DNA of 40,616 nt from Limisphaerales bacterium (GTDB lineage: Bacteria > Verrucomicrobiota > Verrucomicrobiia > Limisphaerales > UBA11358). The translations under genes and the position numbers were made by a program. Under the pieces are notes generated by a model. That model was not told where the DNA came from and did not search any database. It saw nothing but the letters and a program-made list of their open reading frames with translations. The stretch's first letter is position 1; each line of letters starts with the position of its first letter. Shown in pieces: positions 22,435 to 39,126 of the stretch. The stretch spans positions 1-40,616 of the forward strand of contig JANOBC010000045.1 of assembly GCA_031411455.1 (NCBI GenBank), in the 5' to 3' direction.

Positions 22435-22459
22435 TTCTGCACCGCTGCGCCTTTGTTTC

Positions 22460-22566
22460 GGAGCGCGGGTCTGCGACCCGCAGTAGTTTCGCACGTCAGA
22501 ACGTGTTCGGAATAAATTGTAACAGCGGAAGGTTTGAATGTGCTGCGGCTCGCCGAGCCGCGCTCC
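22460..22566. repeat. Intergenic REP-like doublet (GGAG foot)
   Basis: GGAGCGCGGGTCTGCGACCCGCAG ... CTGCGGCTCGCCGAGCCGCGCTCC; each arm is itself a hairpin; same family as 28089-28197. Confidence 0.85.
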
Positions 22567-22626
22567 GCATCAGCCACGCCACGTCACAGTTGACGCCTGC
22601 GCGTTCTGCGGCAAACTTCCTCCCGC

Positions 22627-25600
22627 TTGCCGTCCAACGAACCTTCGTCAGCGACAAGCAATTTGTTCGCTGACATTCTGAAAGCTCCCGCTGTGCAAAC
22701 CCTCGCGCAGTGCGTGGAGCCGGGCGGAGCGCAGACTTTTTTAGGCATCGCCACGAGCGCGCAACCTTTCATCGCCGCGCTGCTGCAAAAGAAATTTCCC
22801 AATCATTCCATCGTCCTCGTCACGGAAAACTCGAAGGCGCAGGAAAGCTGCCAGCAGGATTTGGAAACATGGCTGGGCGAATCACCGCTGTATTTTCCCG
22901 CGTGGGAAATCCTGCCGCACGAAGGCAAACTCCCGCCCGCCGATGTCATCAGCGACCGCCTGCAAACCCTCGTCGCGTTGGCGGAAAATTCCGCACTCCA
23001 CGTTCCGCGCTCCGCACTGGTAGTCACTTCAGTCATCGCCCTGCTGCAAAAAACCTTTGCCGCCGCCGATTTGAAAAACCGCACGCGCTTGCTCAATCGC
23101 GGCGACCAAATCGCGCCGCTTGATTTGATCGAATGGCTGGAGGAGCAGGGCTACGAACCAGAAGCGCAGGTCACACAGCGTGGCGAAATCGCGTTGCGCG
23201 GCGGCATCGTGGACATTTATCCGCCCACGAGTCCGTGGCCGGTGCGGCTGGAATTTTTCGGCGACGAACTGGAATCGCTCCGCGAATTCGACCCGCTCAC
23301 GCAAGTCTCGCGCGGGGAAATTCTGTCCGTCACGCTGCCGCCGGCGGGTGAGATTGGGATTTTGAAACGTGAATGGGAGCGCGGCCTTCAGGCCGCTTCA
23401 CCATCCGAAGTGCAAGCGGCCTCCAATAATCCCGACTCACTTTCAGAAAGAACATTGAAGCGACCTGAAGGTCGCGCTCCGTTCGCCACGCTGCTCGACC
23501 ATCTGCCGCGCGAAACCATTTTTATTTTGTGCGAGCCAGACACGCTCGCCATCCGCGCCGAGGAATACGCGCTGCAAGTTCCGGCGGACGATCCGTTCCA
23601 CCTTGAGTGGCCGGATTTTTTGGTGGAATTAAATCGCCGTAAATTTACGTCCGTTGAATTGACTGAAGCGGATGCGAACGGAGCGCCGAGCGCCCGCTCG
23701 GCAAGTTCCGAATCTGATCAAGGTCAACTTGCCGAGCGGGTGCTCGGCGCTCCGCTATTCAGTTCGCTCGACGTCTTCCGCCCGCTCGCCGAGCGCCCGC
23801 CCGAGCCGCAGATTGCCGAGATGCAGCGGCGCGAATTTTTCCAGCAACTGCATCGCTGGCTTCGGCAAGATTACGCCGTGCACGTCTTTTGCAACAACGA
23901 TGGCGAACGCCAGCGGTTTGAGGAAGTGTGGAAGGAACTCGGCTTCGCTGACAGTCCAAAGTCTAAAGCCCAAAGTCCAGAGTCAGACGCGCGCGAGCAA
24001 CCTTGGACTTTGGGCATCGGACTTTGGATTCATTTAGGTTCGCTCGCGCGTGGTTTTATTTGCGATGACGTGAAGCTGGTCGTCGTCACCGATGCGGAAA
24101 TTTTCGGGCGCTACAAAGTTTTGCGTCCGCGCCGGCTCAAGACGCCGCACGCTTCCGCCGTGCGTTCCGCGATGGAGATTGATTTTGCGGATTTGGAATT
24201 TGGCGACTTGGTGGTTCATCTGCAACACGGCATCGGAAAATATCTTGGCCTGAAAAATTTGCCGACGACGAGCGCCAAATCTGGTAAGGGCGACCTGCGG
24301 GTCGGCCAAGACGCGCAGCAGCGCGTCCCTACCACGGAGGGCGGCACGGAATGTTTGGTCATCGAATACGCCCCCAGCGGCGATGCCGTCGAGCCGCCAA
24401 AACTTTACGTCCCCGTCAGCGAGGCGCATCTCGTCAGCAAATACGTCGGTGCGGGCAAAATAAATCCGCCGCTCAACCAGCTCGGCGGCACGCGCTGGGC
24501 GAAAGCAAAAGAGCAGACCGAGAAAGCCGTGCGCGATGTCGCGGCGGAAATGCTTCGCATCCAGGCCGTGCGCGAATCGCAGCCCGGCCATCCGTGCAAG
24601 CCCGACGTGCCGTGGCAACGCGAGTTCGAGAGCGCATTCATCTACGAGGAAACGGCGGATCAACTCACCGCCATCGCTGCGACGAAAGCCGATCAAGAGC
24701 GCGCCAAGCCGATGGATCGTTTGATCTGCGGCGACGTGGGTTTTGGCAAAACGGAAGTCGCCATTCGCGCCGCATTCAAATGCGTGATGGACGGCAAGCA
24801 AGTCGCCATCCTTGTGCCGACGACGGTTCTCGCGCAGCAGCATTTTAATAATTTCCGCGAGCGCATGGCGGATTATCCCATTCGCATCGAACTGCTCTCT
24901 CGCTACCGCACCAAACGCGAGCAGGACATCGTCGTGAAAAATCTCGTCGCTGGTTCGGTGGACATCGTCATCGGCACGCACCGCATTGTGCAGGACGACA
25001 TCGCGTTCAAAGATTTGGGCTTGGTCGTGATTGACGAGGAGCAGCGCTTCGGTGTGCAGCACAAAGAACAATTCAAGCGCCTCCGCACGATGGTGGACGT
25101 GCTGACGTTGAGCGCCACGCCGATTCCGCGCACGCTTTACCTCGCGCTCACCGGCGCGCGCGACATGAGCACCATCCAGACGCCGCCGCACGACCGTCTG
25201 CCCGTCGAAACCGTGGCGACGCCTTACGATGAGCGTTTGATCCGCGACGCCATCAAGCGCGAGATTGCGCGCGGTGGACAAACTTTTTTTCTGCACAACC
25301 GTGTGACGACGATTTATGCGATGCAGGCGAAGCTGCAAAGTTTGTTACCTGACGCGCGCATCGTCGTCGGCCACGGGCAGATGAATGCGGACGACCTTGA
25401 AGAAGTGATGACGAAGTTCGTCAATGGTGAAGCGGACGTTTTGCTCTCCACGACCATCATCGAGAGCGGCCTCGATATTCCAAATGCGAACACCATTATC
25501 ATTGACCGCGCCGACCGTTTTGGTTTGAGCGAGTTGTATCAGTTGCGCGGACGCGTCGGGCGCTACAAACATCAGGCGTTCGCGTATCTGCTGCTGCCGC

Positions 25601-26274
25601 GCCACGCCACGCTGCTGACCGACGTGCGCAAACGCATCAGCGCGATGAAGCAATACGCCTCGCTCGGCAGCGGCTTTAAGATTGCGATGCGTGATTTGGA
25701 AATTCGCGGCGCGGGAAATTTGCTCGGCTCCGAGCAAAGCGGCCACATCACCGCCGTCGGGTTTGAACTCTACTGCCAGTTGCTCAAGCAAAGCGTCGGC
25801 GCGTTGAAAGGTGAGAAGGTCAAGCCGCGTGTGGAAGTGCGCGTGGCACTGGATTTTTTGGAAATGAGCGGAAGTCGCGAGGCGGTGGGCGATGGGCGCG
25901 AGGACGGAAAAACCTCAAGCCCCGCGCCCCACGTCTCGCTGCCTGAATCCTACATCACCGAGCCGCAGCATCGCATCGAAATTTACCGCAAGCTCGCGCA
26001 GGCCACGGACAAGGCCGCGCTGGAAAGTTTGACGAAGGAATTGCGCGACCGCTTCGGCCCGCTGCCGCCGCCGGTGGAACTGCTGCTGGCCGTGGGTGAA
26101 CTGAAAATTCTCGCCAGCGAAAAATCCGTGACCAGCATCGAAGTCGAGGAAGACAAATTGAAGATCACGCAGCGCGGCAATTTCATCCAGCTCGGCGGCA
26201 AATTTCCGCGCCTCACGAAGAAGGAACCCAAGGCGCGGCTCAAGGAAATCAAACGGCTGCTGCTGGCGATTTGA
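22627..26274 (+). CDS. mfd: Transcription-repair coupling factor
   Basis: RGGIVDIYP, GDLVVHLQHGIGKY, DRLICGDVGFGKTE, DEEQRFG, LSATPIPRT, QLRGRVGR, DLEIRGAGNLLG; TTG start uncertain. Confidence 0.97.
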   Translation: MPSNEPSSATSNLFADILKAPAVQTLAQCVEPGGAQTFLGIATSAQPFIAALLQKKFPNHSIVLVTENSKAQESCQQDLETWLGESPLYFPAWEILPHEGKLPPADVISDRLQTLVALAENSALHVPRSALVVTSVIALLQKTFAAADLKNRTRLLNRGDQIAPLDLIEWLEEQGYEPEAQVTQRGEIALRGGIVDIYPPTSPWPVRLEFFGDELESLREFDPLTQVSRGEILSVTLPPAGEIGILKREWERGLQAASPSEVQAASNNPDSLSERTLKRPEGRAPFATLLDHLPRETIFILCEPDTLAIRAEEYALQVPADDPFHLEWPDFLVELNRRKFTSVELTEADANGAPSARSASSESDQGQLAERVLGAPLFSSLDVFRPLAERPPEPQIAEMQRREFFQQLHRWLRQDYAVHVFCNNDGERQRFEEVWKELGFADSPKSKAQSPESDAREQPWTLGIGLWIHLGSLARGFICDDVKLVVVTDAEIFGRYKVLRPRRLKTPHASAVRSAMEIDFADLEFGDLVVHLQHGIGKYLGLKNLPTTSAKSGKGDLRVGQDAQQRVPTTEGGTECLVIEYAPSGDAVEPPKLYVPVSEAHLVSKYVGAGKINPPLNQLGGTRWAKAKEQTEKAVRDVAAEMLRIQAVRESQPGHPCKPDVPWQREFESAFIYEETADQLTAIAATKADQERAKPMDRLICGDVGFGKTEVAIRAAFKCVMDGKQVAILVPTTVLAQQHFNNFRERMADYPIRIELLSRYRTKREQDIVVKNLVAGSVDIVIGTHRIVQDDIAFKDLGLVVIDEEQRFGVQHKEQFKRLRTMVDVLTLSATPIPRTLYLALTGARDMSTIQTPPHDRLPVETVATPYDERLIRDAIKREIARGGQTFFLHNRVTTIYAMQAKLQSLLPDARIVVGHGQMNADDLEEVMTKFVNGEADVLLSTTIIESGLDIPNANTIIIDRADRFGLSELYQLRGRVGRYKHQAFAYLLLPRHATLLTDVRKRISAMKQYASLGSGFKIAMRDLEIRGAGNLLGSEQSGHITAVGFELYCQLLKQSVGALKGEKVKPRVEVRVALDFLEMSGSREAVGDGREDGKTSSPAPHVSLPESYITEPQHRIEIYRKLAQATDKAALESLTKELRDRFGPLPPPVELLLAVGELKILASEKSVTSIEVEEDKLKITQRGNFIQLGGKFPRLTKKEPKARLKEIKRLLLAI
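22990..23017. repeat. Heptamer tandem array inside mfd
   Basis: TCCGCAC-TCCACGT-TCCGCGC-TCCGCAC, encoding SALHVPRSA. Confidence 0.6.
23376..23480. repeat. REP-like doublet inside mfd (GGAG foot)
   Basis: GGAGCGCGGCCTTCAGGCCGCTTCA ... TGAAGCGACCTGAAGGTCGCGCTCC, a 25-bp inverted repeat with 2 mismatches. Confidence 0.85.
23679..23754. repeat. REP-like doublet inside mfd (GGAG foot)
   Basis: CGGAGCGCCGAGCGCCCGCTCGGCAAGTT ... AACTTGCCGAGCGGGTGCTCGGCGCTCCG, a 29-bp inverted repeat with 1 mismatch. Confidence 0.88.
23953..24030. repeat. Inverted heptamer (AGTCCAA) arrays inside mfd
   Basis: AGTCCAA-AGTCTAA-AGCCCAA-AGTCCAG ... TTGGACT-TTGGGCA-TCGGACT-TTGGATT. Confidence 0.8.
24283..24333. repeat. 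REP-like doublet inside mfd (GTAG foot)
   Basis: GGTAAGGGCGACCTGCGGGTCGGCC ... GACGCGCAGCAGCGCGTCCCTACC; termini resemble the intergenic element at 31680-31733. Confidence 0.75.
25876..25940. repeat. Degenerate inverted heptamer arrays inside mfd
   Basis: CGCGAGG-CGGTGGG-CGATGGG-CGCGAGG ... CCTCAAG-CCCCGCG-CCCCACG-TCTCGCT. Confidence 0.55.
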
Positions 26275-26323
26275 TTGGGAACGGTTGACGCGTGATCCGT
26301 CGTTTGATCTAATTCGCTGGAAT

Positions 26324-27163
26324 ATGGCCGGAGTAAAAATAACTCTTTTCCTTCCCAGCGGAGATGCTCAAAGTTTTAGAACCGCTCAAATAGGCAATTG
26401 GACCGGAATGTCACTCGCCTGTCCGCGTTCAAAGATTGACGATTTATTTTGCCGCGAAGAGATTAGCAAGGCTGGTATTTATTTCTTGATAGGCACAGAT
26501 GCTTCCCTAAATAAGCCGAAGGCATATATCGGAGAAGGTGAAGATGTTGGCAAGCGGCTCAAGCAACATCGCGATAAAGATTTTTGGGTTCAGGTCATTG
26601 TTTTTATTAGCAAGGATGACAACTTAACCAAGTCGCATGTGCGATTTCTCGAAGGTGCGCTTATTGAGGAAGCGATAAAGATTGGGCGGTTCACTCTTGA
26701 GAATGACCAGACAAGCGGGGCAAAACTGCCCGAAGCTGACCGCGGAGAGATGGAGGATTTTCTGTCACGCATCCGCCAATTGCTTCCTGTAATGGGCTGT
26801 GATTTGCTAGTTCCGATGGAGCAGCCAGTCAAAAACAGCAGCCTGATTTGCAAAATTAAAAATCTGACCGCTCGCGGTCAGCGTAGCGCAAAAGGCTTCG
26901 TGGTTTACAAGGGTTCACAGGCCGCAGGCGAACTTCGTAATTCCGCTGCAACGCGCGGCGGTTGGATTATTAAAATCCGCAATCGTTTACTTGAATCCAA
27001 AATATTGGTTGCTGATGGGGGACATCTTTTTTTTGCACGCGATTATGAATTCGACAGTCCGAGTGCTGCCGCTGCAATCGTTCGTGGTGGAAATGCAAAC
27101 GGGTTGACCGAGTGGCGGACGGAAGAAGGCAAAACGCTAAAAGCGCTTGAATCTTTGGCTTAA
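26324..27163 (+). CDS. GIY-YIG nuclease family protein with C-terminal DUF4357 (RAMA-like) domain
   Basis: GIYFLIG..AYIGEGE..KRLKQH, LTKSHVRFLE; C-terminal FVVYKGS, FDSPSAAAAIVRGGNANGLTEW; more AT-rich than its neighbours; ATG at 26324 preferred. Confidence 0.85.
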   Translation: MAGVKITLFLPSGDAQSFRTAQIGNWTGMSLACPRSKIDDLFCREEISKAGIYFLIGTDASLNKPKAYIGEGEDVGKRLKQHRDKDFWVQVIVFISKDDNLTKSHVRFLEGALIEEAIKIGRFTLENDQTSGAKLPEADRGEMEDFLSRIRQLLPVMGCDLLVPMEQPVKNSSLICKIKNLTARGQRSAKGFVVYKGSQAAGELRNSAATRGGWIIKIRNRLLESKILVADGGHLFFARDYEFDSPSAAAAIVRGGNANGLTEWRTEEGKTLKALESLA

Positions 27164-28857
27164 TTTATTTTCATCCACACCGTTTTCAGATACGCCGGTT
27201 CATCGCGGCTGACGGGGAAATCCGGCGGTTGCGGGACGTAATGTTGTTTCAGAATTTTCCGCTTTGCCGCGCACACGGCGGTTTCCACGCTGGTGAGAAA
27301 TTTTTCCGGCGGCCAGTCCGCCGCGTTCGTCGAGGCCAGCAAAACTCCGCCGGGTTTCAAAACGGGCAGCGCGGCGGCCACGAGGTCACCAAAGTTTTTT
27401 TCCACGCGGAACACGCCGTTCTCCTTCGACTGCGAAAATGTCGGTGGATCAAGCACGATGGCATCGAACGCGCGGCCTTTCTTTGCCAGCCGCCGCAGCC
27501 AGTCGAACGTGTCGCCAAAAATAAAATCATGCGCCGCCGGGTCGAGGCCGTTGAGCGCGAAGTTACGCTTGCCCCATTCGAGATATTTTTTCGAGAGGTC
27601 GAGGCTCGTCGTCCGCGCACCGGACTTGGCCGCGCAGACGGAGAAACCGCAGGTGTAGGCGAAGCAGTTCAAAAGTCCAAAGTCCGAAGTCCAAGGCCCA
27701 AGGTCAAAATCGGCGGCGATGTGGCTGGTGAGCAGGCGGCGGCGGTTGTCGCGCTGATCTAAAAACAAACCGACGGAATAGCCTTCGTTGAAACTCATCT
27801 CGTAGCGGATGCCGTTTTCCAAAATTTCAAATCGTTCCGGCGCAGCTTCGCCGAGGACAAGTTGCGGGGAGGCGTCAGAGGTTTTGGATTGGCGGACATG
27901 GCGGGAAAGAATCTTGTGATACGCACCGCGCGAGTTGAAAACTTTTGCCAGCCGCGCCAGTTCCTCGCGCTGCGCCGGATTCAATTCACCTTCCGCCTGC
28001 GAGAGCAGCCAGTCGCCGAGTTTTTCCACGAACCAGCCCGGCCAGCCGTCGCTCGCGCCGTGGATTAGGCGGAAGGCGTTGGTCTGATGGAGCGCGGGTC
28101 TGTGACCCGCAGCGGCCTCGCCAATCGGGGCGCTTGCAAAATCAATTGAAGCGTCTTGAAATGTTCGGAAGTGCTGCGGGCCGCAGACCCGCGCTCCGGT
28201 GGAAACACACGCCTCGCGCAGCGCGAGACGTGGTTCGCGGTCGAAATCCACAGGCGCAGACAGCTTCAGTGAATTTCCGGTGACGGGATGAGTGAACTCA
28301 ATTTCTCCCGCGTGCAAATAAACCCGCGAGGATGCCGTGCCGCCGTAAAGTGTGTCGCCGAGAATCGGAAAACCGCTCTCCGCCGCGTGGACGCGGATTT
28401 GATGAGTGCGGCCGGTGAACGGTTCGGCGTGAACCATCTTCAATCCTGAAATCGCAAACTTGGCATCCGTGATGGGCGTGAATTTTGTCTCGGCTATTTC
28501 TCCACCGGAACGGCTCGCGTATTTCTCGCCGATGCGGAGCAGGGGAGTCTTCACCGTGAATTCTTTTTTTGGAACGGGCTTGTCCGTGAGCAGGAGGTAT
28601 TTTTTATGGACGCGGCGAGCGGTGAATTGTTCCGTGAGCGACTTGTTGGCGAGCGGCGTTTTGCCGAAGACGAGGATGCCGCTGGTTTCTTTGTCGAGCC
28701 GGTGAATGATCGCCAGCGTGGCCCAGCGCGGTTCGCGATTTTTCAGCCACTCATAAATTCCTTCGCCAGCGTAAGGTGATGGCGCGTGCGTGTTCCAGCC
28801 GGCGGGCTTGTGAACCGCTAGCAGGTGTTCGTCTTCAAATATCACGCACGGAACCAT
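27160..28857 (-). CDS. Fused RluA-family pseudouridine synthase and RlmI/RlmK-like SAM-dependent rRNA methyltransferase
   Basis: N-terminal HKPAG, HRLDKETSG, TGRTHQIRVH, PILGDTLYG; C-terminal GLFLDQRDNR, LNCFAYTCGFS, VLDPPTF, YLK; ATG at 28857 preferred. Confidence 0.88.
   Translation of the reverse strand: MVPCVIFEDEHLLAVHKPAGWNTHAPSPYAGEGIYEWLKNREPRWATLAIIHRLDKETSGILVFGKTPLANKSLTEQFTARRVHKKYLLLTDKPVPKKEFTVKTPLLRIGEKYASRSGGEIAETKFTPITDAKFAISGLKMVHAEPFTGRTHQIRVHAAESGFPILGDTLYGGTASSRVYLHAGEIEFTHPVTGNSLKLSAPVDFDREPRLALREACVSTGARVCGPQHFRTFQDASIDFASAPIGEAAAGHRPALHQTNAFRLIHGASDGWPGWFVEKLGDWLLSQAEGELNPAQREELARLAKVFNSRGAYHKILSRHVRQSKTSDASPQLVLGEAAPERFEILENGIRYEMSFNEGYSVGLFLDQRDNRRRLLTSHIAADFDLGPWTSDFGLLNCFAYTCGFSVCAAKSGARTTSLDLSKKYLEWGKRNFALNGLDPAAHDFIFGDTFDWLRRLAKKGRAFDAIVLDPPTFSQSKENGVFRVEKNFGDLVAAALPVLKPGGVLLASTNAADWPPEKFLTSVETAVCAAKRKILKQHYVPQPPDFPVSRDEPAYLKTVWMKIN
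27674..27708. repeat. Heptamer (AGTCCAA) array inside the methyltransferase domain
   Basis: AGTCCAA-AGTCCGA-AGTCCAA-GGCCCAA-GGTCAAA; same unit as in mfd 23953-24030. Confidence 0.8.
28089..28197. repeat. REP-like doublet inside the RluA-RlmI fusion (GGAG foot)
   Basis: GGAGCGCGGGTCTGTGACCCGCAGC ... GCTGCGGGCCGCAGACCCGCGCTCC; left arm differs by 1 base from the intergenic copy at 22460. Confidence 0.88.
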
Positions 28858-29146
28858 GCGCGGATGAAAACATTTTTCGGCGCGGGAATAAATCACGAAT
28901 GGACACCAATAAACAGGAATGCCATCGGAATTGGTTGCGTCGGAATATGCCGTGAAGGCCGTGTGATTGCTTGGATGGTGGCATTTGTCGCGCTGCGATA
29001 AATTTTACCTGCGAAGCAGGCACTGGCGGCGGGCAAACTTCAAGCGCGGTCATCCAACTCTTCCGTCGCCTGACGCTGTTGGGCGTAATTCCACCCCTCA
29101 CCCCAACCCCTTTCAAGGGGAGAGGGGGAAGCGATTCGAGTTGCGG

Positions 29147-29944
29147 TTATTTTCCCACCGCGCTGAAAACTTTTTGCATCAGGTCGGTCGTGCGGGACAG
29201 TGGGTTCTCACGGATTTTCTTTTCTTCGTCGGCAATCATTTTGAAGAGGCCGTCCAGAGTTTTGTTCGCTACATACGCGTCTACGTCCAGCGCGTCTGCA
29301 CCGAGATAATTTTTTGACAGCCCGCCGAGCGCGCTGCTGAATCCGGTGCTGCCGCTGCCGCCGACTTTTGCCATCATGTTTTTGTAGGAGCTGGTCACGC
29401 CGGTCTTGGCGGTGGCGGCCTGCACGATGGGCATAAATTTTGCGTAAAGATTTGTCTGCGTGGTGCGGCGGAAGTATTGCGTGGCGGAATCCTGCGGGCC
29501 GGTGAGAACGGCCTTCGCATCCGCGATGGACATGCCTTTCACGGCGTCGCCAAAGACGGACGCGGCCTGCGGCACGGCGGCTTCGGCGGCACGGTTCATG
29601 GTGGTGACGAATTCATCTGCGAGTTTTTCCTGCTTCACCGCGCGCAAAGCTTTTTCCACCGACTGCAATTTTTCCGGCAGCGGAATTTTCACCGCCGCGT
29701 TATTTAGAAAACCGCCGTCGTGGCCGAGGTTGGCGATGGCGTTTTGCAAGCCCTTGCCGAGCGCGTCCTTGAGTCCGCCCGCGACCTGCGTATCCGACAG
29801 GGCGTTGACTGCGGTTGAGGTCAAGGTTGTGTTCGTGGCAACGGCGTTGGTCGAAGTTTTATTCAGGCCAAGTTGTTCCAACCAGCCGGCGCGGGCGGAA
29901 AACATGGAAACGGCTAGGATAGTGGGGAGGAGAAATTTTTTCAT
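29147..29944 (-). CDS. DUF4197 domain-containing secreted protein
   Basis: Signal peptide; GLKDALGKG, VKIPLP, MNRAAEAA, SATQYFR, GLFKMIADEEKKIRENP; ATG at 29944. Confidence 0.88.
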   Translation of the reverse strand: MKKFLLPTILAVSMFSARAGWLEQLGLNKTSTNAVATNTTLTSTAVNALSDTQVAGGLKDALGKGLQNAIANLGHDGGFLNNAAVKIPLPEKLQSVEKALRAVKQEKLADEFVTTMNRAAEAAVPQAASVFGDAVKGMSIADAKAVLTGPQDSATQYFRRTTQTNLYAKFMPIVQAATAKTGVTSSYKNMMAKVGGSGSTGFSSALGGLSKNYLGADALDVDAYVANKTLDGLFKMIADEEKKIRENPLSRTTDLMQKVFSAVGK

Positions 29945-30197
29945 GGCCGTTAGGCAAACAGCAAAGTGGGTGGCGGTCAAGAAATCTCGCGGCGAAGCAG
30001 TCGAGGTGTCCCGCCTTTATGCTGCAAACCAGACATTTCTTGGCTAGCGGGCGGACGGGTCGTCCGCGCTCCGTGGCGGCGTTCGGAAAGTTGTCAGTTG
30101 TGTCACATCTCAAGACGCGGACGGACGGGGCGGGGCGGTTTTATTTGAAGGGACGGAAAAAAACAGTTGGCCTGCCATTTGCTGAATTAATTCCCGT

Positions 30198-30362
30198 ATG
30201 ACAAACACAAATTTTACCGTGCGTGAAAAAAGCGGAGTTGACCAGATCGGTTTGCTGCCGCAGAACAAACGTCAAGAGTCGCATTTCGGATTTATTGACG
30301 GGGCGCTGGTCGTCGGTTTTCTGACCGCGTTCGTCGGGCTGGTCTGCCTGCTCGCGAAATAA
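30198..30362 (+). CDS. Small 54-aa membrane protein absent from the ORF track
   Basis: MTNTNFTVREKSGVDQIGLLPQNKRQESHFGFIDGALVVGFLTAFVGLVCLLAK; C-terminal hydrophobic helix; fills an otherwise empty gap. Confidence 0.55.
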   Translation: MTNTNFTVREKSGVDQIGLLPQNKRQESHFGFIDGALVVGFLTAFVGLVCLLAK

Positions 30363-30401
30363 AAATCTCCCGGAACGCCCTAAGCCGCCGCCGCGGAAGA
30401 G

Positions 30402-31658: not shown

Positions 31659-31679
31659 AAAATTATTTCAATGTTCACA

Positions 31680-31733
31680 GGTAGGGCGGCTTTGCCGCGC
31701 CGCCTTTTGGCGAACCGGCAGGTTCACCCTACC
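31680..31733. repeat. Intergenic REP-like doublet (GTAG foot)
   Basis: GGTAGGGCGGCTTTGCCGCGCCGCC ... GGCGAACCGGCAGGTTCACCCTACC. Confidence 0.8.
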
Positions 31734-31740
31734 AAGTTTT

Positions 31741-32529
31741 TCAAAGGTTGGTCTCAACCGGCTCGGCCAGCAATTCTTTTACGGCGGGACTGCGGGCAAA
31801 GTCCTCGCCGTTCCACGCGCCCAGCCCGGAAAAATTTCCCTCGTGCAGCACGGCGAACTTCCGTTTCGGATGCTGCCATGCGCGCAAATCATCCGTCGTC
31901 ACCACGATGGTCATCGGGCAACCGCCAAAAAATTCATGGCCGGTGGCAAGCTGCTCCAGAAATTTCAGCAGCCATTGCCGGGGCCGCACGCCGAGGCCAC
32001 CCAGCGGATTATCCAGCAGCAGCAATTCCGGCTTGAGCACCAGCGCGCGTGCCAGGGCTGCCCGTTGCCGCCAACTGGATGCGAGGCTGCCCGGCGTGGA
32101 ATTCGCGAACGGCGTCAGCTCCAGCAATTCCAGCAGCAACTCCACCGCGCGCGCCGCCTCCGCCTCCGCTAGATTTTTATGGTAACGCAGCGGCAACGCC
32201 ACGTTCTCCGCGATGCTCAACTGGTTGAACAGCCGTCCATCCGCAAAAACAATGCCCACGCGCAGCCGCTCGGCGATTTGCTCCTCGTCAAACTCGCGCG
32301 TGTCGCAGCCGAACAGGCGGCACATCCCGCGTGCTGGCATCATCAAACCCGCCGCGTGCAGCAGCAAGTGGATCTTGCCGGAATGTTGCTGGCCCGCGAC
32401 GACCCAGAACTCGCCTGGCTGCACCGTCCACTCTACGTTCTCTACGACCGTGAACGACGCATCGCGCAGCGCGGTGATATCCGCGCCAAGCATTTCGATG
32501 ACGGCTGGGTTGAAGGTGGTTTCGTTCAT
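31741..32529 (-). CDS. MlaF-like ABC ATP-binding protein with degenerate catalytic motifs
   Basis: GQQHSGK, LFNQLSIAENVALPL, QRAALARAL, LLLLDNP; lies between mlaE and mlaD. Confidence 0.8.
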   Translation of the reverse strand: MNETTFNPAVIEMLGADITALRDASFTVVENVEWTVQPGEFWVVAGQQHSGKIHLLLHAAGLMMPARGMCRLFGCDTREFDEEQIAERLRVGIVFADGRLFNQLSIAENVALPLRYHKNLAEAEAARAVELLLELLELTPFANSTPGSLASSWRQRAALARALVLKPELLLLDNPLGGLGVRPRQWLLKFLEQLATGHEFFGGCPMTIVVTTDDLRAWQHPKRKFAVLHEGNFSGLGAWNGEDFARSPAVKELLAEPVETNL

Positions 32530-33386
32530 GTCACGAGATAAAGTATGATGAAAATGGCATCAATCAGCACGCATACCACGACGCCCTGCGTCACCGCGCG
32601 CACCGCCACGCGCGCGACATCCTCCAGCCGCAACGGTTGCGCGAGGCCGTGGTAGCAGGTCACGATGGCGATGAAAAAGCCGAACGTCACCGTCTTCAAC
32701 GCCAGCAGCGCGAAGTCCAGCCAGTTCAGCGCGCCCGTAATTTGTTTCAAGTAATCGCCCGGCGTCAGCGGCACGTCCTGCAAAAACGCAAACAGATACC
32801 CGCTCGCCAGCGCGCCGAGGATGAGATAAATCGTCAGTGAAAAAATTCCCAGCGCCATCCCGATGACGCGCGGCACGATGAGGTAATGCACCGGGTCAAT
32901 CCCCAGCGCCTCCAGCGCCTCGACTTCGCCGAGCGCCCGCGCCGTGCCGAGTTCGATGACGTTCGCCGTGCCGACGCGTGCCAGCACGAGCATCGCCGTT
33001 AGCAGCGGGCCGAGTTCCCGCACGATGACGATGACCATCGTGGAGCCGAGATAATTCGTCTGCCCCAGCCGTGCCAGCGCGGAAACCGCCTGCCCGACGA
33101 CGACGAATCCCAAAGCCAGCGCGACGAAAATAAACAGCGGCATCAACGCCGAGCCTGAACGGGAAATCTCCGCCCGCACCTGCGGCTGCACCACACTGCG
33201 CGCCACGGAAAATTTTTTAATCATGACGCCGAGCGTGATGAGCGCGAACGCCCCGAGACCCTGAATGGTGAGCAGCGCGAGAAATAATTTTCGCCCCAAT
33301 CGGTCGGCGTAGGATTTGGGTGTGACCGCGTGCCGGAACACTTGCGTGCCCGTCAGTTGAAACGCCTTTGCCAGTTCGCCGCGCAT
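32526..33386 (-). CDS. mlaE: MlaE family ABC permease
   Basis: IVRELGPLLTAMLVLARVG, ELGT..EVEALEALGIDPVHYLIVPRV, VTCYHGL. Confidence 0.9.
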   Translation of the reverse strand: MRGELAKAFQLTGTQVFRHAVTPKSYADRLGRKLFLALLTIQGLGAFALITLGVMIKKFSVARSVVQPQVRAEISRSGSALMPLFIFVALALGFVVVGQAVSALARLGQTNYLGSTMVIVIVRELGPLLTAMLVLARVGTANVIELGTARALGEVEALEALGIDPVHYLIVPRVIGMALGIFSLTIYLILGALASGYLFAFLQDVPLTPGDYLKQITGALNWLDFALLALKTVTFGFFIAIVTCYHGLAQPLRLEDVARVAVRAVTQGVVVCVLIDAIFIILYLVT

Positions 33387-33506
33387 GGTCGCAGCGTAGG
33401 CTGCTGCTGGCGCGCGGTCAAAAAAGATTTTCTACCAAAGTTGGCGGGCGACGACGCGTGACGTCAGTTGCCAGCAATCAGCAGCCTGAATTAATTCCCC
33501 AGCTAT

Positions 33507-34082
33507 TCAATCCTGCCCCAGCTTACGCCGCAAGTTGGTGACGAGCTTGTCGGCCATCCGCTCGAACGGCAGCAGCGGACGCCCGTGCAGTTTGATTTCG
33601 TCAATCGTCGCCAGCGCCATCCCGAAGTCGTAATCGTTCAGTGCGCGGTTGCGCTTGAGGCGGCGCACCCAGCGCGTCAGGTCACTGACCTCCTCGATGT
33701 CGCCCGCTGTTCCCGTGCGGAAGGAAATGTTCCACTCCTCGTGCCGCGAGAAACCATCGCGTTCTTGGCGTTGTTCCAGCAACGGATCGCAGAGCAAGAT
33801 GCACACGGATTTTTTTCCCGCTGTGCCGAGCCGGTAAAAAACGATCCGCGCCGCCGTCTCGGAAAAAATGTCGTAGGCGATCTCCAACGCATCGTCATCC
33901 GGCGGCGTGAACTTCGTCTGGAACCCCACGCGCAAACTATTGGTGATGGCGTTCTTTTCGATGCATAGGTTCTCGGGAAAAATCCACAACACGTCGGCAG
34001 GCAGGCCGGCGGCGGCAAGGGATTTCTGCCACGCGGTCAGCGCGGTGCTCAAAGACGGACGGGTGACGGTAGGTTTGCTCAT
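33507..34082 (-). CDS. Hypothetical protein
   Basis: 191-aa ORF starting 20 bp downstream of the epimerase stop on the same strand; no motif recognised. Confidence 0.65.
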   Translation of the reverse strand: MSKPTVTRPSLSTALTAWQKSLAAAGLPADVLWIFPENLCIEKNAITNSLRVGFQTKFTPPDDDALEIAYDIFSETAARIVFYRLGTAGKKSVCILLCDPLLEQRQERDGFSRHEEWNISFRTGTAGDIEEVSDLTRWVRRLKRNRALNDYDFGMALATIDEIKLHGRPLLPFERMADKLVTNLRRKLGQD

Positions 34083-34102
34083 TTAGTTTGCCTTGATGGC
34101 GC

Positions 34103-35059
34103 TTACTTCTGCCGGTTTTTGCGGAACCAATCAACAAAAAGCGGAATTCCTTTTTCCACCTTCACCTGCGGATGGTAATCCAGCTTCGCGCGGGCCTTGG
34201 AAATGTCGGCATACGTCACCGGCACATCGCCGGGCTGCAATGGCTGGCGGTCAATGATGGCTGTCTTGCCCAGCGCCGACTCGATGAGCGCGATGAGGGC
34301 GGACAATTTCACCGTCTGCGATTCGCCGAGGTTGAAGATGTCGAAACCAAATTCTCTGGTCGTGCAAGCGATGACGCCTTGCACAATGTCGCTGACAAAA
34401 GTGTGGTCGCGCGCTGTCGAGCCATCGCCGAAAACCGGAATCGGTTTGCCCGCATCAATCAGCCGCGTGAATTTGTGAATCGCCAAATCCGGCCGCTGGC
34501 GTGGGCCATAGACCGTGAAGAAACGCACCATCGCCACATCCATTTTATAGACGTGATGATACGTGTGACCCAGCGCCTCGCACGCGAGCTTGCTGGCCGC
34601 GTAAGGCGAGATGGCAGAAAAAATCGGGTCGCTCTCGCTGAATGGCACCTTGGCATTCACGCCATAAACCGACGACGACGACGCGAGTGTGATTTTTTTC
34701 ACGCCGGTTTTCCGCGCGGCTTCGAGGAGGTTCACCGTGCCCTCGACATTCACGCGCTGATACAACGCCGGTTGCTCTAAACTCGGCCGCACCCCGGCCC
34801 GGGCGGCGAGGTGAATGACCTGATCAAACTTCACGGACGAAAAAATTTCATTCACCGCTTCCACGTCGCACAGGTCGCCATGGAAAAATTCAAAGGGCTT
34901 GGCGAGCGACTGGATGTCGCGGAGATTCGCGCGCTTGAGCTGCGGGTCGTAGAAATCATTCAGCTCATCAAACGCCCAGACGGCATGGCCATCATGCAGG
35001 AGGCGTTCGCAAACGTGCGAGCCGATAAAGCCCGCGCCGCCGGTGACGAGAAAATTCAT
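34103..35059 (-). CDS. NAD-dependent epimerase (UDP-glucuronate 4-epimerase-like)
   Basis: LVTGGAGFIGSH, HLAARAGVRPS, SSSSVYG, YAASK, RFFTVYGPRQRPD, QPGDV; ATG at 35059. Confidence 0.9.
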   Translation of the reverse strand: MNFLVTGGAGFIGSHVCERLLHDGHAVWAFDELNDFYDPQLKRANLRDIQSLAKPFEFFHGDLCDVEAVNEIFSSVKFDQVIHLAARAGVRPSLEQPALYQRVNVEGTVNLLEAARKTGVKKITLASSSSVYGVNAKVPFSESDPIFSAISPYAASKLACEALGHTYHHVYKMDVAMVRFFTVYGPRQRPDLAIHKFTRLIDAGKPIPVFGDGSTARDHTFVSDIVQGVIACTTREFGFDIFNLGESQTVKLSALIALIESALGKTAIIDRQPLQPGDVPVTYADISKARAKLDYHPQVKVEKGIPLFVDWFRKNRQK

Positions 35060-35154
35060 GGACAAACGCTAACAACGGAAGGGAAAACTGTCGAGCATCC
35101 CAGTGGGTCAGTTTGAAAGCCGGTGGGGCGAGCGTCCTGCTTTGTTTTCTGAAA

Positions 35155-35925
35155 CTAAAACCGCAGATGCTTTACCGTCAGCGCGCCGTTGATGAGCTGC
35201 TTCAATGAATCAATCCCGATGCGCAGATGTTTGTCGAGAAACACCTGCGTCACCTTCTCATCACTCTTGGCCGTCTTCACGCCGTCCGGCGTCATCGGTT
35301 GGTCGCTCACGAGCAGCAACGCGCCCGTCGTGATTTCGTTGTGGAAACCCGTGATAAAAATCGTCGCTGTCTCCATATCAATACCGATGCAGCGGAGCTT
35401 CTTTAGATATTTTTTGAACTCATTGTCATGTTCCCACACGCGGCGGTTCGTCGTGTAAACTGTGCCCGTCCAGTAATCGCGCTTGTGATCGCGGATGGTT
35501 GTGGAGATGGCTTTTTGCAAACTGAACGCGGGCAACGCGGGAACCTCCGGCGGATAATAATCATTCGACGCGCCCTCGCCGCGAATCGCCGCGATGGGCA
35601 AGACGAGCGAACCGAGTTTCGCGACGTGCTTCAACCCGCCGCACTTGCCGAGGAACAACACCGCTTCGGGTTTGATGGACGAAAGCAAATCCATGATCGT
35701 TGCCGCGCTCGCGCTGCCCATGCCGAAATTGATGATTGTGATGCCATTCGCCGTGGCGTTGGGCATCGGCTTGTCCGCGCCGCGAATGGGGACCTTGTGC
35801 CACTTGGCGAACATCTCCACGTAGTTGTTGAAATTGACGAGCAGGATGTGCTTGCCGAAATCCTTGAGCGGCGTGCCCGTGTAACGCGGCAGCCAGTTTG
35901 CGACGATGTCAGCCTTGGTTTTCAT
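35155..35925 (-). CDS. amn: AMP nucleosidase (short PNP/UDP phosphorylase-family form)
   Basis: IVANWLPRYTG, INFGMGS, FLGKCGG, AIRGEG, TTNRRVWE, DMETAT, LLVSD; ATG at 35925. Confidence 0.9.
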   Translation of the reverse strand: MKTKADIVANWLPRYTGTPLKDFGKHILLVNFNNYVEMFAKWHKVPIRGADKPMPNATANGITIINFGMGSASAATIMDLLSSIKPEAVLFLGKCGGLKHVAKLGSLVLPIAAIRGEGASNDYYPPEVPALPAFSLQKAISTTIRDHKRDYWTGTVYTTNRRVWEHDNEFKKYLKKLRCIGIDMETATIFITGFHNEITTGALLLVSDQPMTPDGVKTAKSDEKVTQVFLDKHLRIGIDSLKQLINGALTVKHLRF

Positions 35926-35984
35926 TCGTTGCCAACGTGTTTTCACATAGAACTCCCGCGACGGCAAGTGGAAACCTAACCAAA

Positions 35985-36575
35985 TTAAATTTTTACTCCC
36001 AACGTGCGAAGGAGTTCAACAACCTTCCGATAATTTTCTGGTTTTAATTCCTTTTTGAACGCATCAACAATTAATGATTGATGCTTTCTTAGTTCGTCCA
36101 AATCTTTCTGCAATTGAACCAACTGATCGCTTTTTGAGTGACCATGAATCGACTCTTGTCCCTCTTGCCGTGATTCCGGTGTGGTTTGCAAAGATTTTGA
36201 CCAGAGTTCTTCGGAAATAATCTGGCATTTTGCGCCGGAACTTTTGAAATCCAGCACGGCCATGATTTTTCTTCCGAAACTTCCATGTCCCCAAGAAGGT
36301 TCAGCATAATTTCCAACAACCAAATAATTGAGTGCACGGTTGGGACGCTCGTAACAAAATCCACCGCGCAGTTTGGTCTCAGACTCGCATTGATTTCGGT
36401 CGCCATCGGCAAAATCAAAAACTCCCGTGAAACAAAAGGAACGGCCTTGAAAAATGATTTCAGGAGCAGGCGTGTCCAAAAATTCCTTCGACGAGGGAAC
36501 GAGTTTAGCAGACTTGTTCTTGGCTGAAGATTTATAGGGCTTCAGCACATAAACTTTTTTGTTTTGCGTTGGCAT
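35985..36575 (-). CDS. Stand-alone BRCT domain protein
   Basis: FQGRSFCFTG..GG..LNYLVVG..SWGHGSFGRKI..IISEELW; starts 1 bp after the ligA stop; AT-rich. Confidence 0.75.
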   Translation of the reverse strand: MPTQNKKVYVLKPYKSSAKNKSAKLVPSSKEFLDTPAPEIIFQGRSFCFTGVFDFADGDRNQCESETKLRGGFCYERPNRALNYLVVGNYAEPSWGHGSFGRKIMAVLDFKSSGAKCQIISEELWSKSLQTTPESRQEGQESIHGHSKSDQLVQLQKDLDELRKHQSLIVDAFKKELKPENYRKVVELLRTLGVKI

Positions 36576-36576
36576 T

Positions 36577-39126
36577 TTAGAACAGCTCGTTTTTTGGCTT
36601 TGATTTTCGCCCCAACATTTCCAGAAATTCTTTCTCTGTTAGGATTTTTGTGCCGAGTTCTTTTGCTTTATCCAATTTTGAACCCGCTTCTTCGCCAGCG
36701 AGCAGGAAGTCTGTTTTTGTGCTGATTGAACCAGTGACATTGCCGCCAGCTTCCCGAACCATTTCCGAAGCCTCATCGCGTGACAGGCTTGGCAGCGTGC
36801 CGGTAAGCACGAAGGTTTTTCCGGAAAATTTTCCTTCTGTCGTTAATCTTGAGGAGGAAACGGGATGGATGTGAAGTTCATGCAATCGGCTCAATAGTTT
36901 CTTGCCCAGCTTCGTGCTGAAAAAAGAAAGGACATTTTCGGCAGGCACATAGTCAATTAGCGGTAAAAAACTTGGAACAGCTTTACTTCCCTCCTGTTCT
37001 AGCTTTGCCCAGTTCCCACTTTTTTTAACCCAGCCGGCTTCGACCAATCGATTTCCAAATTCAAGAAGCTCTTGTTTTGTTTTTTTGAACAGTTCTTTCC
37101 GGGAGGACTTTTCGTCTTGAGATAAATTATCGGTATGCGGAGAGCAGGCTGTCAGGGCCGCATATAAATCTCCTAGTGCTTTGATTTCTCCCAACATTTT
37201 TGAAGTAGCGACTTGTTCCAGATCATTGTGGAACTTCGCGATGTCTATTGCAGTTACTTCGCCAACATTTGGAATTCCGAGGGCAAAAAGCCAGCGGGAC
37301 AGCGGCGCGGTCTTGGCGCGCTGGAGTGCGTCGAGAATCTTCGTGGCGTTCTTCTCGCCGAACGTGCGCGGCTCGTCGTCCGTGCCGAGATTCAGTTTGC
37401 CGAGCACTTCCAGTTTCAAATCGAACAAATCGAGCGGGTCTTTCACCAGCCCGCGTTCAACAAGTTTTTCCGCCACGATGCCGCCGAGCGATTCGATGTC
37501 CAATGCCTTGCGTGCGGCGAAGTATTCCACGCGCCGCGTGAGTTGCGCCGGACAGCCCGCAATGTTCTGGCAACGCCAGGCGACTTCTTCATCAACGCTC
37601 GGAGGGACGAGCTCCGGGAGTCCCTGACTAATTCCCTGGCTTTCGTTTTTTGATTTGGGACTCGTGGAACTCGTCCCTCCGGCTTTTATATCCTTCGCAA
37701 TCGGCCCGCCGCACGCCGGGCATTTCCCGCCGACGTGTTGGAACAAATCAAACTCCTTCGCGCCGGGCGGGCGTTTGGTTTTCATCACCTCAAAAATTTC
37801 CGGGATGACCATGCCCGCTTTGCGGATGACCACGGTGTCGCCGATGCGAATGTCTTTGCGGCGGATTTCATCCTCGTTGTGCAATGTCGCGCGCGCAACG
37901 GTCGAGCCTTGCACGAACACCGGTTCCAGTTCCGCCACGGGCGTGAGCACGCCGGTGCGGCCGACTTGAATCGTGATGGCTTTGAGAATCGTTTCCGCTG
38001 GCGTAATCCACGGCACGGGTTTGTGGACGATGGCGTAACCTGGTGCGCGGCTGCGTCCGGGAATCTTCGCCCAATCCGCGAGCGTGTTCACCTTGAGCAC
38101 GATGCCGTCGATCTCGTAGGGCAACTGCCGCCGCAAATCCTTGTCCTCGTCGTAATGCGCGACGATTTTCTCGCGGTAAATTTTCAAAACCTCCTCAATC
38201 CCATCGCAGACCCACCATATTTTTTGCGTGGGCAAACCAAACTTGGCGAGCGCTTCGAGCATCTCGGAATGGGTCTTGAACTCAATGCCATCAATCGCGC
38301 CAGTCGCATAAAACACCGCGCGAATCGGGCGCTGGGCGACAATCTTGGGGTCGAGTTGCTTGAGCGTGCCAGCGGTTCCATTGCGCGCATTGGGCAAAGT
38401 TTTTTCACCGGCGGCGGCAAGCTTGGCATTGAACGCGTCAAATTCCTTGATCGTCATGTAAGCCTCGCCGCGCACTTCGAGCAAAGTGGGACAGGCATCT
38501 TGCCTGTCGAGTTCTTGTTTGGTTTTAGAATTTTTTCCTGACACTGACTGAACAGGCGAGACGCCTGTCCCACTACCCAACTCCAGCGGAATCGAGCGGA
38601 GCGTCTTGAGATTGGCCGTGATGTCATCGCCTTCCGCGCCGTCGCCGCGCGTGACGCCGAGCGCGAGCTTGCCCTCGCGATAGTGCAGGCTGATGGAAAC
38701 GCCGTCCGCTTTCGGCTCGATGACGTATTGAACTTGGTCACGGCCAAGCTGCTTGCAGATGGTCGCATCGAACGCGCGAAGTTCGGCGAGCGTGTTCTCG
38801 TCCTGCGCGCGATTGCGTTGGTCGCGGTCGGGCATCTCCTCTTTGGTCGGCGAATCGCTGGCGGAAACTTTGTCGAGCGAGAGCATCGGCACGAGATGTT
38901 TCACGCGCACAAATTTTTCGCTGGGCGCACCGCCGACGCGCTGCGTGGGAGATTCCGGCGTGGCGAGGTCAGGAAAATTGTTCTCCAACGCCTGAAGCTC
39001 GCTGAACAGCGCGTCGTATTCGCGGTCGGAAATTTTTGCCTCGCCCTCGACGTAATAGGCGTGGTCGTGCCGGCGAATTTCATCGGCAAGTTGCGCGTGG
39101 CGTTGTTTGGCGGCGGCGGGCGTCAC
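36577..39126 (-). CDS. ligA: NAD-dependent DNA ligase
   Basis: AYY..ISDREYD, SPTQRVG, PMLSL, EPKADG (KxDG), TRGDG..G, EVRGE, DGIVLK, QVGRTG, ATLHN, zinc finger CPAC..C..C, HhH, C-terminal BRCT (FVLTGTL); GTG at 39126 preferred. Confidence 0.96.
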   Translation of the reverse strand: MTPAAAKQRHAQLADEIRRHDHAYYVEGEAKISDREYDALFSELQALENNFPDLATPESPTQRVGGAPSEKFVRVKHLVPMLSLDKVSASDSPTKEEMPDRDQRNRAQDENTLAELRAFDATICKQLGRDQVQYVIEPKADGVSISLHYREGKLALGVTRGDGAEGDDITANLKTLRSIPLELGSGTGVSPVQSVSGKNSKTKQELDRQDACPTLLEVRGEAYMTIKEFDAFNAKLAAAGEKTLPNARNGTAGTLKQLDPKIVAQRPIRAVFYATGAIDGIEFKTHSEMLEALAKFGLPTQKIWWVCDGIEEVLKIYREKIVAHYDEDKDLRRQLPYEIDGIVLKVNTLADWAKIPGRSRAPGYAIVHKPVPWITPAETILKAITIQVGRTGVLTPVAELEPVFVQGSTVARATLHNEDEIRRKDIRIGDTVVIRKAGMVIPEIFEVMKTKRPPGAKEFDLFQHVGGKCPACGGPIAKDIKAGGTSSTSPKSKNESQGISQGLPELVPPSVDEEVAWRCQNIAGCPAQLTRRVEYFAARKALDIESLGGIVAEKLVERGLVKDPLDLFDLKLEVLGKLNLGTDDEPRTFGEKNATKILDALQRAKTAPLSRWLFALGIPNVGEVTAIDIAKFHNDLEQVATSKMLGEIKALGDLYAALTACSPHTDNLSQDEKSSRKELFKKTKQELLEFGNRLVEAGWVKKSGNWAKLEQEGSKAVPSFLPLIDYVPAENVLSFFSTKLGKKLLSRLHELHIHPVSSSRLTTEGKFSGKTFVLTGTLPSLSRDEASEMVREAGGNVTGSISTKTDFLLAGEEAGSKLDKAKELGTKILTEKEFLEMLGRKSKPKNELF
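37601..37680. repeat. REP-like doublet inside ligA (GGAG foot)
   Basis: GGAGGGACGAGCTCCGGGAGTCCC ... GGGACTCGTGGAACTCGTCCCTCC, lying between the zinc-finger cysteine pairs. Confidence 0.85.
38485..38574. repeat. REP-like doublet inside ligA (GTGG foot)
   Basis: AGTGGGACAGGCATCTTGCCTGTC ... ACAGGCGAGACGCCTGTCCCACT, 90 bp, just before the EVRGE motif. Confidence 0.88.

Follow-up and report, generated by a model that had tools for sequence, protein, structure and literature searches.

In-frame REP-like doublets in mfd, rluA-rlmI and ligA of a Limisphaerales genome and their possible relation to nested RAYT genes

How can palindromic repeats with the look of mobile DNA lie within core genes and leave the reading frames open? 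The question is raised by a stretch of 40,616 nucleotides (nt), here called the window, from an uncultured Verrucomicrobiota bacterium of the order Limisphaerales (subdivision 3). The window is contig C45 (JANOBC010000045.1) of G000 (GCA_031411455.1), a metagenome-assembled genome of 3.54 Mb in 444 contigs with an estimated completeness of 91% and contamination of 4.25%. A preliminary description made from the sequence alone had noticed six hairpin doublets in the genes mfd (3), ligA (2) and rluA-rlmI (1), and had compared them with repetitive extragenic palindromic (REP) elements and their paired forms (REPINs), mobilised by REP-associated tyrosine transposases (RAYTs). Our analysis indicates that the doublets are probably mobile elements of the REP/REPIN type which have been inserted recurrently and filtered by reading frame, absence of stop codons and tolerance of the receiving loop. 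Taken family by family, the REPIN-RAYT interpretation is supported for those of the GGAGCGC type, plausible for the others and wrong for one of the elements in mfd (mfd3).

Doublets in frame within mfd, rluA-rlmI and ligA

The doublets were located by inverted-repeat scans and the host genes were identified by Pfam. The gene mfd (positions 22627-26274, forward strand) encodes the transcription-repair coupling factor of 1215 amino acids (aa); the rluA-rlmI fusion (27160-28896, reverse strand) joins a pseudouridine synthase to an RlmI-type methyltransferase in 578 aa; and ligA (36577-39237, reverse strand), encoding the NAD-dependent DNA ligase, is an open reading frame (ORF) of 886 aa. All six doublets reported within these genes were recovered, and the three ORFs run without a stop through every insert. 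The original list of elements turned out to be incomplete, since a fourth element of mfd (mfd4, 24286-24338), a half element in rlmI (about 27670-27711) and an intergenic doublet at 19315-19379 have to be added.

The elements of mfd, which thus carries four, lie on the forward strand. mfd1 (23376-23480, family A2) and mfd2 (23679-23754, family A3) are doublets with a GGAGCGC foot, the second of them nearly perfect, and rlu (28089-28197), within rluA-rlmI, is a full REPIN of family A1. In ligA, lig1 (37600-37681, family C) is a doublet with the foot GGAGGGAC and lig2 (38485-38574, family B) one with the foot GTGGGAC. The single design proposed earlier, a foot followed by a short hairpin, fits these five elements (GGAG-CGC in mfd1, mfd2 and rlu, GGAG-GGAC in lig1 and GTGG-GAC in lig2). 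Variant feet, GTAA/GTAG-GG, are found in an intergenic element at 31680 and in mfd4 (family F), where GTAAGGG and CCCTACC enclose a pair of dissimilar GC hairpins. The design fails for mfd3 (23955-24028, family D), whose arms are inverted runs of a CCAAAGTC-like octamer with neither foot nor inner hairpin; the half element in rlmI, on the reverse strand, is of the same octamer family and encodes DFDLGPWTSDFGLL. When nine elements of the window were folded as single-stranded DNA, their z scores ranged from -3.2 to -11.6 (mfd1 -5.5, mfd2 -11.6, mfd3 -5.8, mfd4 -3.8, rlu -6.4, lig1 -5.7, lig2 -7.2), and for each element none of 200 dinucleotide shuffles was as stable.

The peptides encoded by the doublets had been described as foreign to their protein families. 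We compared the three genes with those of 30 genomes (18 congeneric with G000 and 12 from other Limisphaerales families), taking as short any ORF within 8 aa of the shortest at a site and as inverted repeats those with arms of at least 12 nt. The mfd alignment comprised 29 ORFs; the count for rlu was taken from the protein alignment and the others from a site-by-site count. Most orthologues are short and free of palindromes at the same sites, and the peptides are not conserved in orthologues without palindromic DNA. mfd1 follows the UvrB-interaction domain directly and encodes ERGLQAAS...LKRPEGRAP; 16 of 28 ORFs are short there. In G031, a relative with about 89% DNA identity to G000 across the window region, this site (contig C613, equivalent to 23365-23485 of the window) is occupied by just one REP, which belongs to the GGAGCGCGGACGGCTCGTCCGC subfamily and also has a GGAGCGC foot, where G000 has the doublet; elements with the same foot appear to replace one another at this position. 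At the mfd2 site 6/28 ORFs are short and 11/28 carry inverted repeats, and at the mfd3 site the corresponding figures are 10/28 and 13/28. The arms at the latter stay complementary across species despite a differing sequence (CCAAAGTCC versus CCACAGTCC), and decayed older copies are found there in two relatives (L015 and L027). mfd4 lies in the RID domain and encodes RVGQDAQQRVPT; the arm of its family has 7 copies in the genome.

In LigA, lig1 falls within the zinc finger, with one cysteine pair on either side. Twenty of 29 ORFs are short at this site and nine carry inverted repeats, the encoded peptides forming several unrelated groups. lig2 is placed in the adenylation domain and encodes ...DRQDACPT; here 18/28 ORFs are short, and family B occupies the identical site in G020 and G010 as well. 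Judged from these alignments, the foreign peptides are not conserved parts of Mfd, LigA or RluA-RlmI, and the same loops have been filled repeatedly by different element families in different species. The relatives (L036-L065) showed in addition two LigA types within one genus, about 50% identical to each other, one of which has a conserved, non-palindromic segment of 23 residues (PTKEEMPDRDQRNRAQDENTLA) together with a longer helix-hairpin-helix region. In G031 ligA is found on two contigs, which are only 75-76% identical to the query and were left out as a ligA outgroup.

The rlu insert occupies the linker that joins the pseudouridine synthase module to the methyltransferase module, and encodes about 37 residues. 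G031 shares it at the identical position. None of the 28 other ORF rows of the alignment has it, three relatives have unrelated inserts nearby, and the fusion itself is conserved in 29 of the 31 genomes searched. Empty orthologues bear only a loose likeness to the foot at this site (CCGGAAGC versus CCGGAGCGC). An AlphaFold model of RluA-RlmI from a 25-row alignment gave a mean predicted local distance difference test score (pLDDT) of 79.3 and a predicted template modelling score (pTM) of 0.72. Its only long stretch of low confidence, residues 217-256, is the insert, with a pLDDT of 26-28 and no secondary structure, and the insert is accordingly predicted to be a disordered linker loop between two well-modelled modules.

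Public sediment metagenome contigs from four runs of two studies were compared with positions 22400-29000. Independent assemblies from these four runs and two studies contain the same inserts. One contig of the second study, however, differs from the window by 19 letters over 1693 nt and lacks positions 23676-23741 of mfd2; mfd1 and mfd3 are both present in it, as is rlu in a further contig from the run. The allele without mfd2 reads ADA joined directly to LGAPLF, which is the state found in a distant relative (L007). Since a strain of 99% identity is without these 66 nt (22 codons), the gain or loss of mfd2 is recent and frame-preserving. The net inserted length, measurable in this case alone, is what selection keeps in frame.

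Repeat families, transposase genes and the origin of the inserts

The families of the window have other copies in the genome, as the preliminary description had expected of mobile repeats. Arm motifs were searched with up to 3 mismatches (up to 2 for the 20-mer of family D), and each gave 4 to 43 copies in 3.54 Mb compared with 0 or 1 in the shuffled genome. Family A1, to which rlu and an intergenic copy at 22454 belong, comprises 17 full-length doublets that align from foot to foot, spacer included. They have two slightly differing, well-conserved arms and homologous though diverged spacers, so that the spacers, at least in this family, are not unique as had been supposed. Thirteen of these doublets are intergenic, one is at a gene edge and three are in genes. 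The 7 doublets of family B and the 6 of fam10 could be aligned likewise. Their arms are largely intragenic (17/27 in B and 14/18 in fam10, with 5 of the 6 fam10 doublets intragenic), and families B, C, D and fam10 lie mostly within ORFs according to crude gene calls, unlike the predominantly extragenic pattern of REPs. The calls came from a home-made caller that predicted 2729 genes with 84% of the genome coding.

A de novo scan of G000 seeded with exact matches of 10 nt found at least 329 doublets in 87 sequence clusters; these totals are lower bounds because mfd1, mfd3 and lig1 escaped the scan. In clusters of three or more members, 156 doublets are intergenic, 55 are at gene edges and 43 are within genes, which corresponds to 281 doublets per Mb of non-coding and 14 per Mb of coding DNA. 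The window was chosen for its doublets, 6 of which fall within 8 kb of coding sequence as against a genome average of about 14-24 per Mb. A rough scan with simplistic hairpin detection found a hairpin behind 187 of 880 GGAGCGC sites, compared with about 5% for six control heptamers. mfd3 belongs to one of several octamer-type inverted-repeat families of G000. Many other doublet families of this genome are likewise inverted runs of 7-8-nt units (CGCAAAG-, CACAGATGAAA-, GGATTAAC- and TCATCCTCATCG-type) and lack both a foot and an inner hairpin, for example at 19315-19379 of the window, C12 451-546 and C397 1373-1547; they sit mostly beside gene ends, and mfd3 is in the same class.

With fifteen arm motifs, 57 ORFs of at least 250 aa were found to hold an element at least 40 aa away from either end, and 17 of 19 scanned ORFs from this set matched Pfam families at E <= 1e-8. 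The hosts include an HrpA-like helicase, two UvrD-type helicases, DnaX and RecQ, where the insert falls in the zinc-binding domain. Other hosts are a class I aminoacyl-tRNA synthetase, alanyl-tRNA synthetase (AlaRS), GlmS, a MiaB-like radical SAM enzyme, a sigma-70 region 4 protein, a TPR-repeat protein, a flavoprotein subunit, two glycosidases, a DUF4450 protein, a DUF455 protein and a protein with phosphoesterase and beta-propeller domains. Host genes are longer than the average gene (median 515 versus 408 aa, p 9e-6). Extragenic A1 copies are stop-free in 1 to 4 of the six frames, and a stop-free reading is therefore not rare.

No transposase was found among the proteins of the window, in agreement with the preliminary description. 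In the rest of the genome, RAYT genes flanked by family repeats were sought and found: REPINs with GGAGCGC or GGAACGC feet flank RAYTs on contigs C44 and C116. With 82.4 bits the ORF on C44 passes the cut-off (80) of NF047646, the model for REP-associated tyrosine transposases, and it reaches 17.5 bits on the IS200 model. Its sole match in the PDB is TnpA-REP of E. coli (4ER8, E 3.8e-6), in an alignment that spans the segments vmpnHvH and yiesNP, that is, the histidine-hydrophobic-histidine (HUH) and tyrosine motifs, and GGAGCGCGGCTGTGT repeats lie on both sides of the gene. The second RAYT, at C116 2948-3715, is 52% identical to that of C44 and is flanked by GGAACGCCGAGC... doublets, which mfd2 resembles. 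A REP arm of the GGARCGCCGAGC type lies inside the coding sequence of the C116 RAYT (C116 3490-3512, peptide ...AERRAPSRPV...), and this transposase gene thus carries a repeat of its own type. The Pfam IS200-like model matched five places in G000, and NCBIfam set three IS200/IS605-type genes (C168, C218 and C146), of which that on C146 is flanked by its own doublets, apart from the RAYT type. In total the genome has at least three RAYT-type and three IS200-like genes.

These observations suggest how the inserts may arise. Judging from homology and from the published biochemistry of other RAYTs, HUH tyrosine transposases of this type would recognise the foot and hairpin on single-stranded DNA, cut it and rejoin it. 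Excerpts of PMC8266576 describe a tetranucleotide foot that guides cleavage by the RAYT and a GTGG variant that redirects it, which fits the GGAG, GTAG and GTGG feet seen here. Most copies would land or survive between genes and a minority would land in coding DNA, where they would persist only if the net change in length is a multiple of three, the frame is free of stops and the 20-40 extra residues fall in a tolerant surface loop or linker. The insert would then be translated as a disordered loop, the disorder being computed and the translation presumed from the open frame. Long multi-domain enzymes acting on nucleic acids would offer many such loops and so could take up several inserts each; the same loops would be hit repeatedly in different species, with gain and loss still going on.

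Several observations sit less well with insertion of REP-type elements and have to be weighed against it. mfd3 and family D do not have the look of REPs. No RAYT was found adjoining the exact families A1, A2, B, C (foot GGAGGGAC) or D in G000, GTGGGAC being the foot of B, although this is weak evidence because the genome is 91% complete and in 444 contigs. The link between RAYT and REP is itself drawn from flanking position and homology, and the intragenic and intergenic counts depend on the crude gene caller. Foot-to-foot lengths of the intragenic doublets are mostly not multiples of three, so the inserted unit is not simply the stretch from foot to foot. In the allele without mfd2, 12 nt are still present that match the outer end of the right arm exactly and contain a foot, GCGCTCC. 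By analogy with IS200/IS605 elements these 12 nt could be a foot-like target beside the insertion, or they could be left by an imprecise deletion. They, the lengths just mentioned and the single REP of another subfamily that G031 carries at the mfd1 site would also suit palindromes made or renewed locally, by template switching, by fold-back at a short seed or by gene conversion from extragenic copies. We regard this origin as very improbable. The rlu insert matches a 17-member family over its full length, spacer included, and so cannot be the product of local fold-back; the same family occurs at unrelated loci throughout the genome, and RAYTs flanked by similar repeats are present in it.

Retention of the intragenic copies for a function, either at the level of DNA or RNA (pausing, attenuation, mRNA stability, binding of gyrase or RAYT) or as useful protein loops, is unlikely in our judgement, if less so than a local origin. 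Between G000 and G031 the arms of rlu differ at 2 of 50 positions, those of G031 being perfect, and the spacer at roughly 12 of 56 (manual count). The arms are thus better conserved than the spacer and the flanks and could, from this comparison, be under a constraint beyond neutrality, a further point against mere insertion and filtering; yet such conservation would be expected no less if arms have to be intact to be mobilised or converted from other copies. Function would also agree with the arms that stay complementary at the mfd3 site and with loops occupied in many species, but unrelated families fill the same loop in different species, close relatives have none, and older copies decay, as in L015 and L027. 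Many hosts are nucleic-acid enzymes, as in excerpts of Di Nocera et al. 2013 (PMC3733652), although the length of the host genes alone favours multi-domain enzymes. Filled and empty alleles coexist at 99% identity, moreover, and the rlu insert is predicted to be disordered. As for artefacts of assembly or binning in a fragmented genome, the 444 contigs, the estimated contamination and contigs that often end in repeats (C309, C44) might invite the suspicion. It can practically be dismissed, given that the same inserts recur in independent assemblies from four runs and two studies, that rlu is common to G031 and that similar inserts occupy the same loops in many further genomes, of which some consist of 1 to 10 contigs.

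RAYT domains nested in alaS, thrS and priA

The search for transposases also led to RAYT domains that lie in frame inside other genes. Contig C309 of G000 holds the 5' part of alaS, in which, after GKKYGSTLP, one open frame continues through a fam10 doublet, a RAYT, another fam10 doublet and AlaRS (C309 404-2521, locus L176; related loci L188, L189, L178, L190-L193 and L220-L232). The nested domain of 150 residues reaches 70.3 bits on NF047646, below the cut-off of 80, and has HVH and YICRNP motifs. The alaS gene of G000 is split over at least two contigs (C309 and C380; L176 and L218), each breaking at or near fam10 repeats. Besides the RAYT it holds at least four fam10 elements (C309 1346-1486, C309 2009-2144, the contig end, and C380 434-570). 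Relatives have complete chimeric alaS ORFs; that of G016, for example, encodes 1217 residues on a contig of 291 kb and is the only alaS match of its genome.

Among the genomes the nested RAYT occupies two different sites of alaS. It is also found in priA of G013, G016 and G030 and in a gene for a PglX-like methyltransferase of G010; taken over the order, the hosts are alaS, priA, thrS and two genes of methyltransferase-like type. RAYT matches at E <= 1e-10 were obtained in 121 of 151 sampled genomes of Limisphaerales and in 2 of 14 control genomes. All 13 of the long-open-frame matches retrieved are nested in recognisable hosts (alaS 8, priA 3, thrS 1, DUF1156 protein 1), and 11 of 12 alaS-nested copies have HUH and tyrosine motifs according to a pattern search. 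A tree of 23 RAYT domains unites the alaS-, thrS-, priA- and methyltransferase-nested copies in one clade with 100/100 support; across a long branch stands a second clade with the two free-standing RAYTs of G000 and the DUF1156-nested copy. Within the tree the priA-nested copies group together (97/100) and the two alaS sites are intermixed. In a comparison meant to tell vertical inheritance from homing, the pairwise identities of the alaS host N-terminus and of the RAYT proved only weakly related (Pearson 0.17, p 0.23). The nested RAYT domain has 1752 matching clusters of 388-1236 aa in a protein database at E <= 1e-20, and among the 120 of these that were listed 109 have an AlaRS family, 10 have threonyl-tRNA synthetase (ThrRS) families and one is a partial protein. 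Automatic names given by JGI include 'alanyl-tRNA synthetase/REP element-mobilizing transposase RayT'.

The Pfam and NCBIfam matches of 22 ORFs with a nested RAYT include no Hint or intein family, and so give no sign of protein splicing. An AlphaFold model of the chimeric AlaRS of G054 (1117 aa, 17-row alignment) is poor overall, with a mean pLDDT of 55.4, a pTM of 0.32 and a badly modelled AlaRS core; in it the RAYT stretch (about residues 345-445) has a pLDDT of 66-84 and its flanks have values below 50. Taking these sequences together, we consider it about evenly balanced whether a distinct RAYT lineage of Limisphaerales lives in frame in essential genes, with REPINs as linkers and presumably as an internal domain of AlaRS, ThrRS or PriA, the REPINs of mfd, ligA and rluA-rlmI being the non-autonomous side of a system adapted to coding DNA.

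A full-text literature search found no description of a RAYT nested in alaS. A term look-up in the bioRxiv preprint by Bertels et al. 2017 found no mention of a nested RAYT, and there is none in section 16 of Di Nocera et al. 2013 (PMC3733652). The nested lineage thus looks unreported.

Known systems and other features of the window

In-frame insertion of palindromes had been thought, in the preliminary description, to be known mainly from Rickettsia palindromic elements (RPEs). This overlooks the work of Di Nocera et al. (2013, BMC Genomics 14:522, PMC3733652), who in the excerpts consulted reported single and dimeric REPs that are wholly enclosed by ORFs. Dimers or grouped repeats, encoding 20-30 residues, make up over half of the intragenic GTAG inserts described there. 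The highest number of intragenic REPs was found in the verrucomicrobium Opitutus terrae, and many of the hosts are genes for DNA synthesis or repair. Hosts in O. terrae include DNA ligase and RNA helicases, and those of other species include pseudouridine synthase genes; two Xanthomonas species have different REPs at about the same site of recB. Intragenic REPs of R. conorii are equated there with RPE-4 and RPE-6, and the CGTC class that includes those Rickettsia repeats shows no association with transposase genes. The elements of G000 resemble these intragenic REPs in occurring singly or as dimers within ORFs, in their repair-gene hosts and in the presence of different repeats at one site. 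They differ in belonging to Limisphaerales and to other families, and in having feet that are mostly GGAGCGC, GGAGGGAC or GTGGGAC in place of the canonical GTAG. In-frame insertion of REPs in repair genes has therefore been known since 2013, and a claim of near-novelty for it is unsupported.

With the REPIN-RAYT systems of E. coli (TnpA-REP, 4ER8) and Pseudomonas the elements share a foot with a GC-rich hairpin, inverted doublets of conserved overall length, tens of mostly extragenic copies, and RAYTs that have HUH and tyrosine motifs and are flanked by their own repeats. The arrangement that defines a REPtron, a RAYT between repeats, is present with GGAGCGCGGCTGTGT on C44, the GGAACGCCGAGC type on C116 and fam10 on C309. 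Bertels et al. 2017, in the portion consulted, describe RAYTs as typically single-copy, whereas here there are several RAYT or IS200-like genes in one genome and dozens of repeat families, a substantial intragenic share (B and fam10) and one RAYT lineage in frame inside host genes. The likeness to Rickettsia palindromic elements, which are also in-frame palindromic inserts retained in protein genes, is functional only, and the phylum is another one. Inteins and homing-endonuclease genes are comparable to the nested RAYT as selfish genes for DNA-cutting enzymes placed in frame at conserved sites of alaS, thrS and priA; the nested RAYT differs from them in being a HUH tyrosine transposase with REPIN-derived linkers and no Hint domain reported.

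What is new here is the number of families per genome and of inserts per gene, the mapping of empty and filled sites across about 30 genomes with loops that recur across the order, and a segregating allele of 66 nt. If the reading of recurrent insertion holds, elements of REP type keep adding loops of 20-40 residues to essential multi-domain enzymes across a bacterial order. Automated annotations and protein alignments of such lineages would then contain many lineage-specific foreign segments that are in fact mobile DNA. The loops that are hit recurrently would show where Mfd, LigA, RluA-RlmI and further enzymes tolerate insertions, and the polymorphism between filled and empty sites would give a handle on the turnover of elements in natural populations. 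The discussion of REPIN-RAYT systems treats them as long-lived and inherited vertically. A RAYT lineage locked in frame into alaS, thrS and priA would represent a new mode of persistence for them, and at the same time a natural case of an essential enzyme bearing an HUH nuclease domain.

The intergenic copies noted near 22460 and 31680 were also found. The former is a REPIN doublet of family A1 upstream of mfd (22454-22572), with the foot GGAGCGC, the hairpin GGGTC..GACCC and a z score of -4.5; the latter (31680-31733, family E) is a single stem structure GGTAGGG...CCCTACC with a z score of -3.2 and 11 arm copies in the genome. A further intergenic doublet, of the GACAGGATTAAC-type family, lies at 19315-19379, 21 nt past the stop of an ORF at 17372-19294. 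An Rfam scan of the whole window gave no family at gathering score. Two patches of the window, 26285-27163 and 35985-36575, have a low GC content (0.505 in 26001-27000 and 0.44 in 36001-37000, compared with about 0.58 elsewhere). The first of them holds a gene for a DUF4357 protein between mfd and rluA-rlmI, and the coverage by metagenome contigs falls to zero within it at about 26599-26819, a segment that may be recently acquired or variable among strains.

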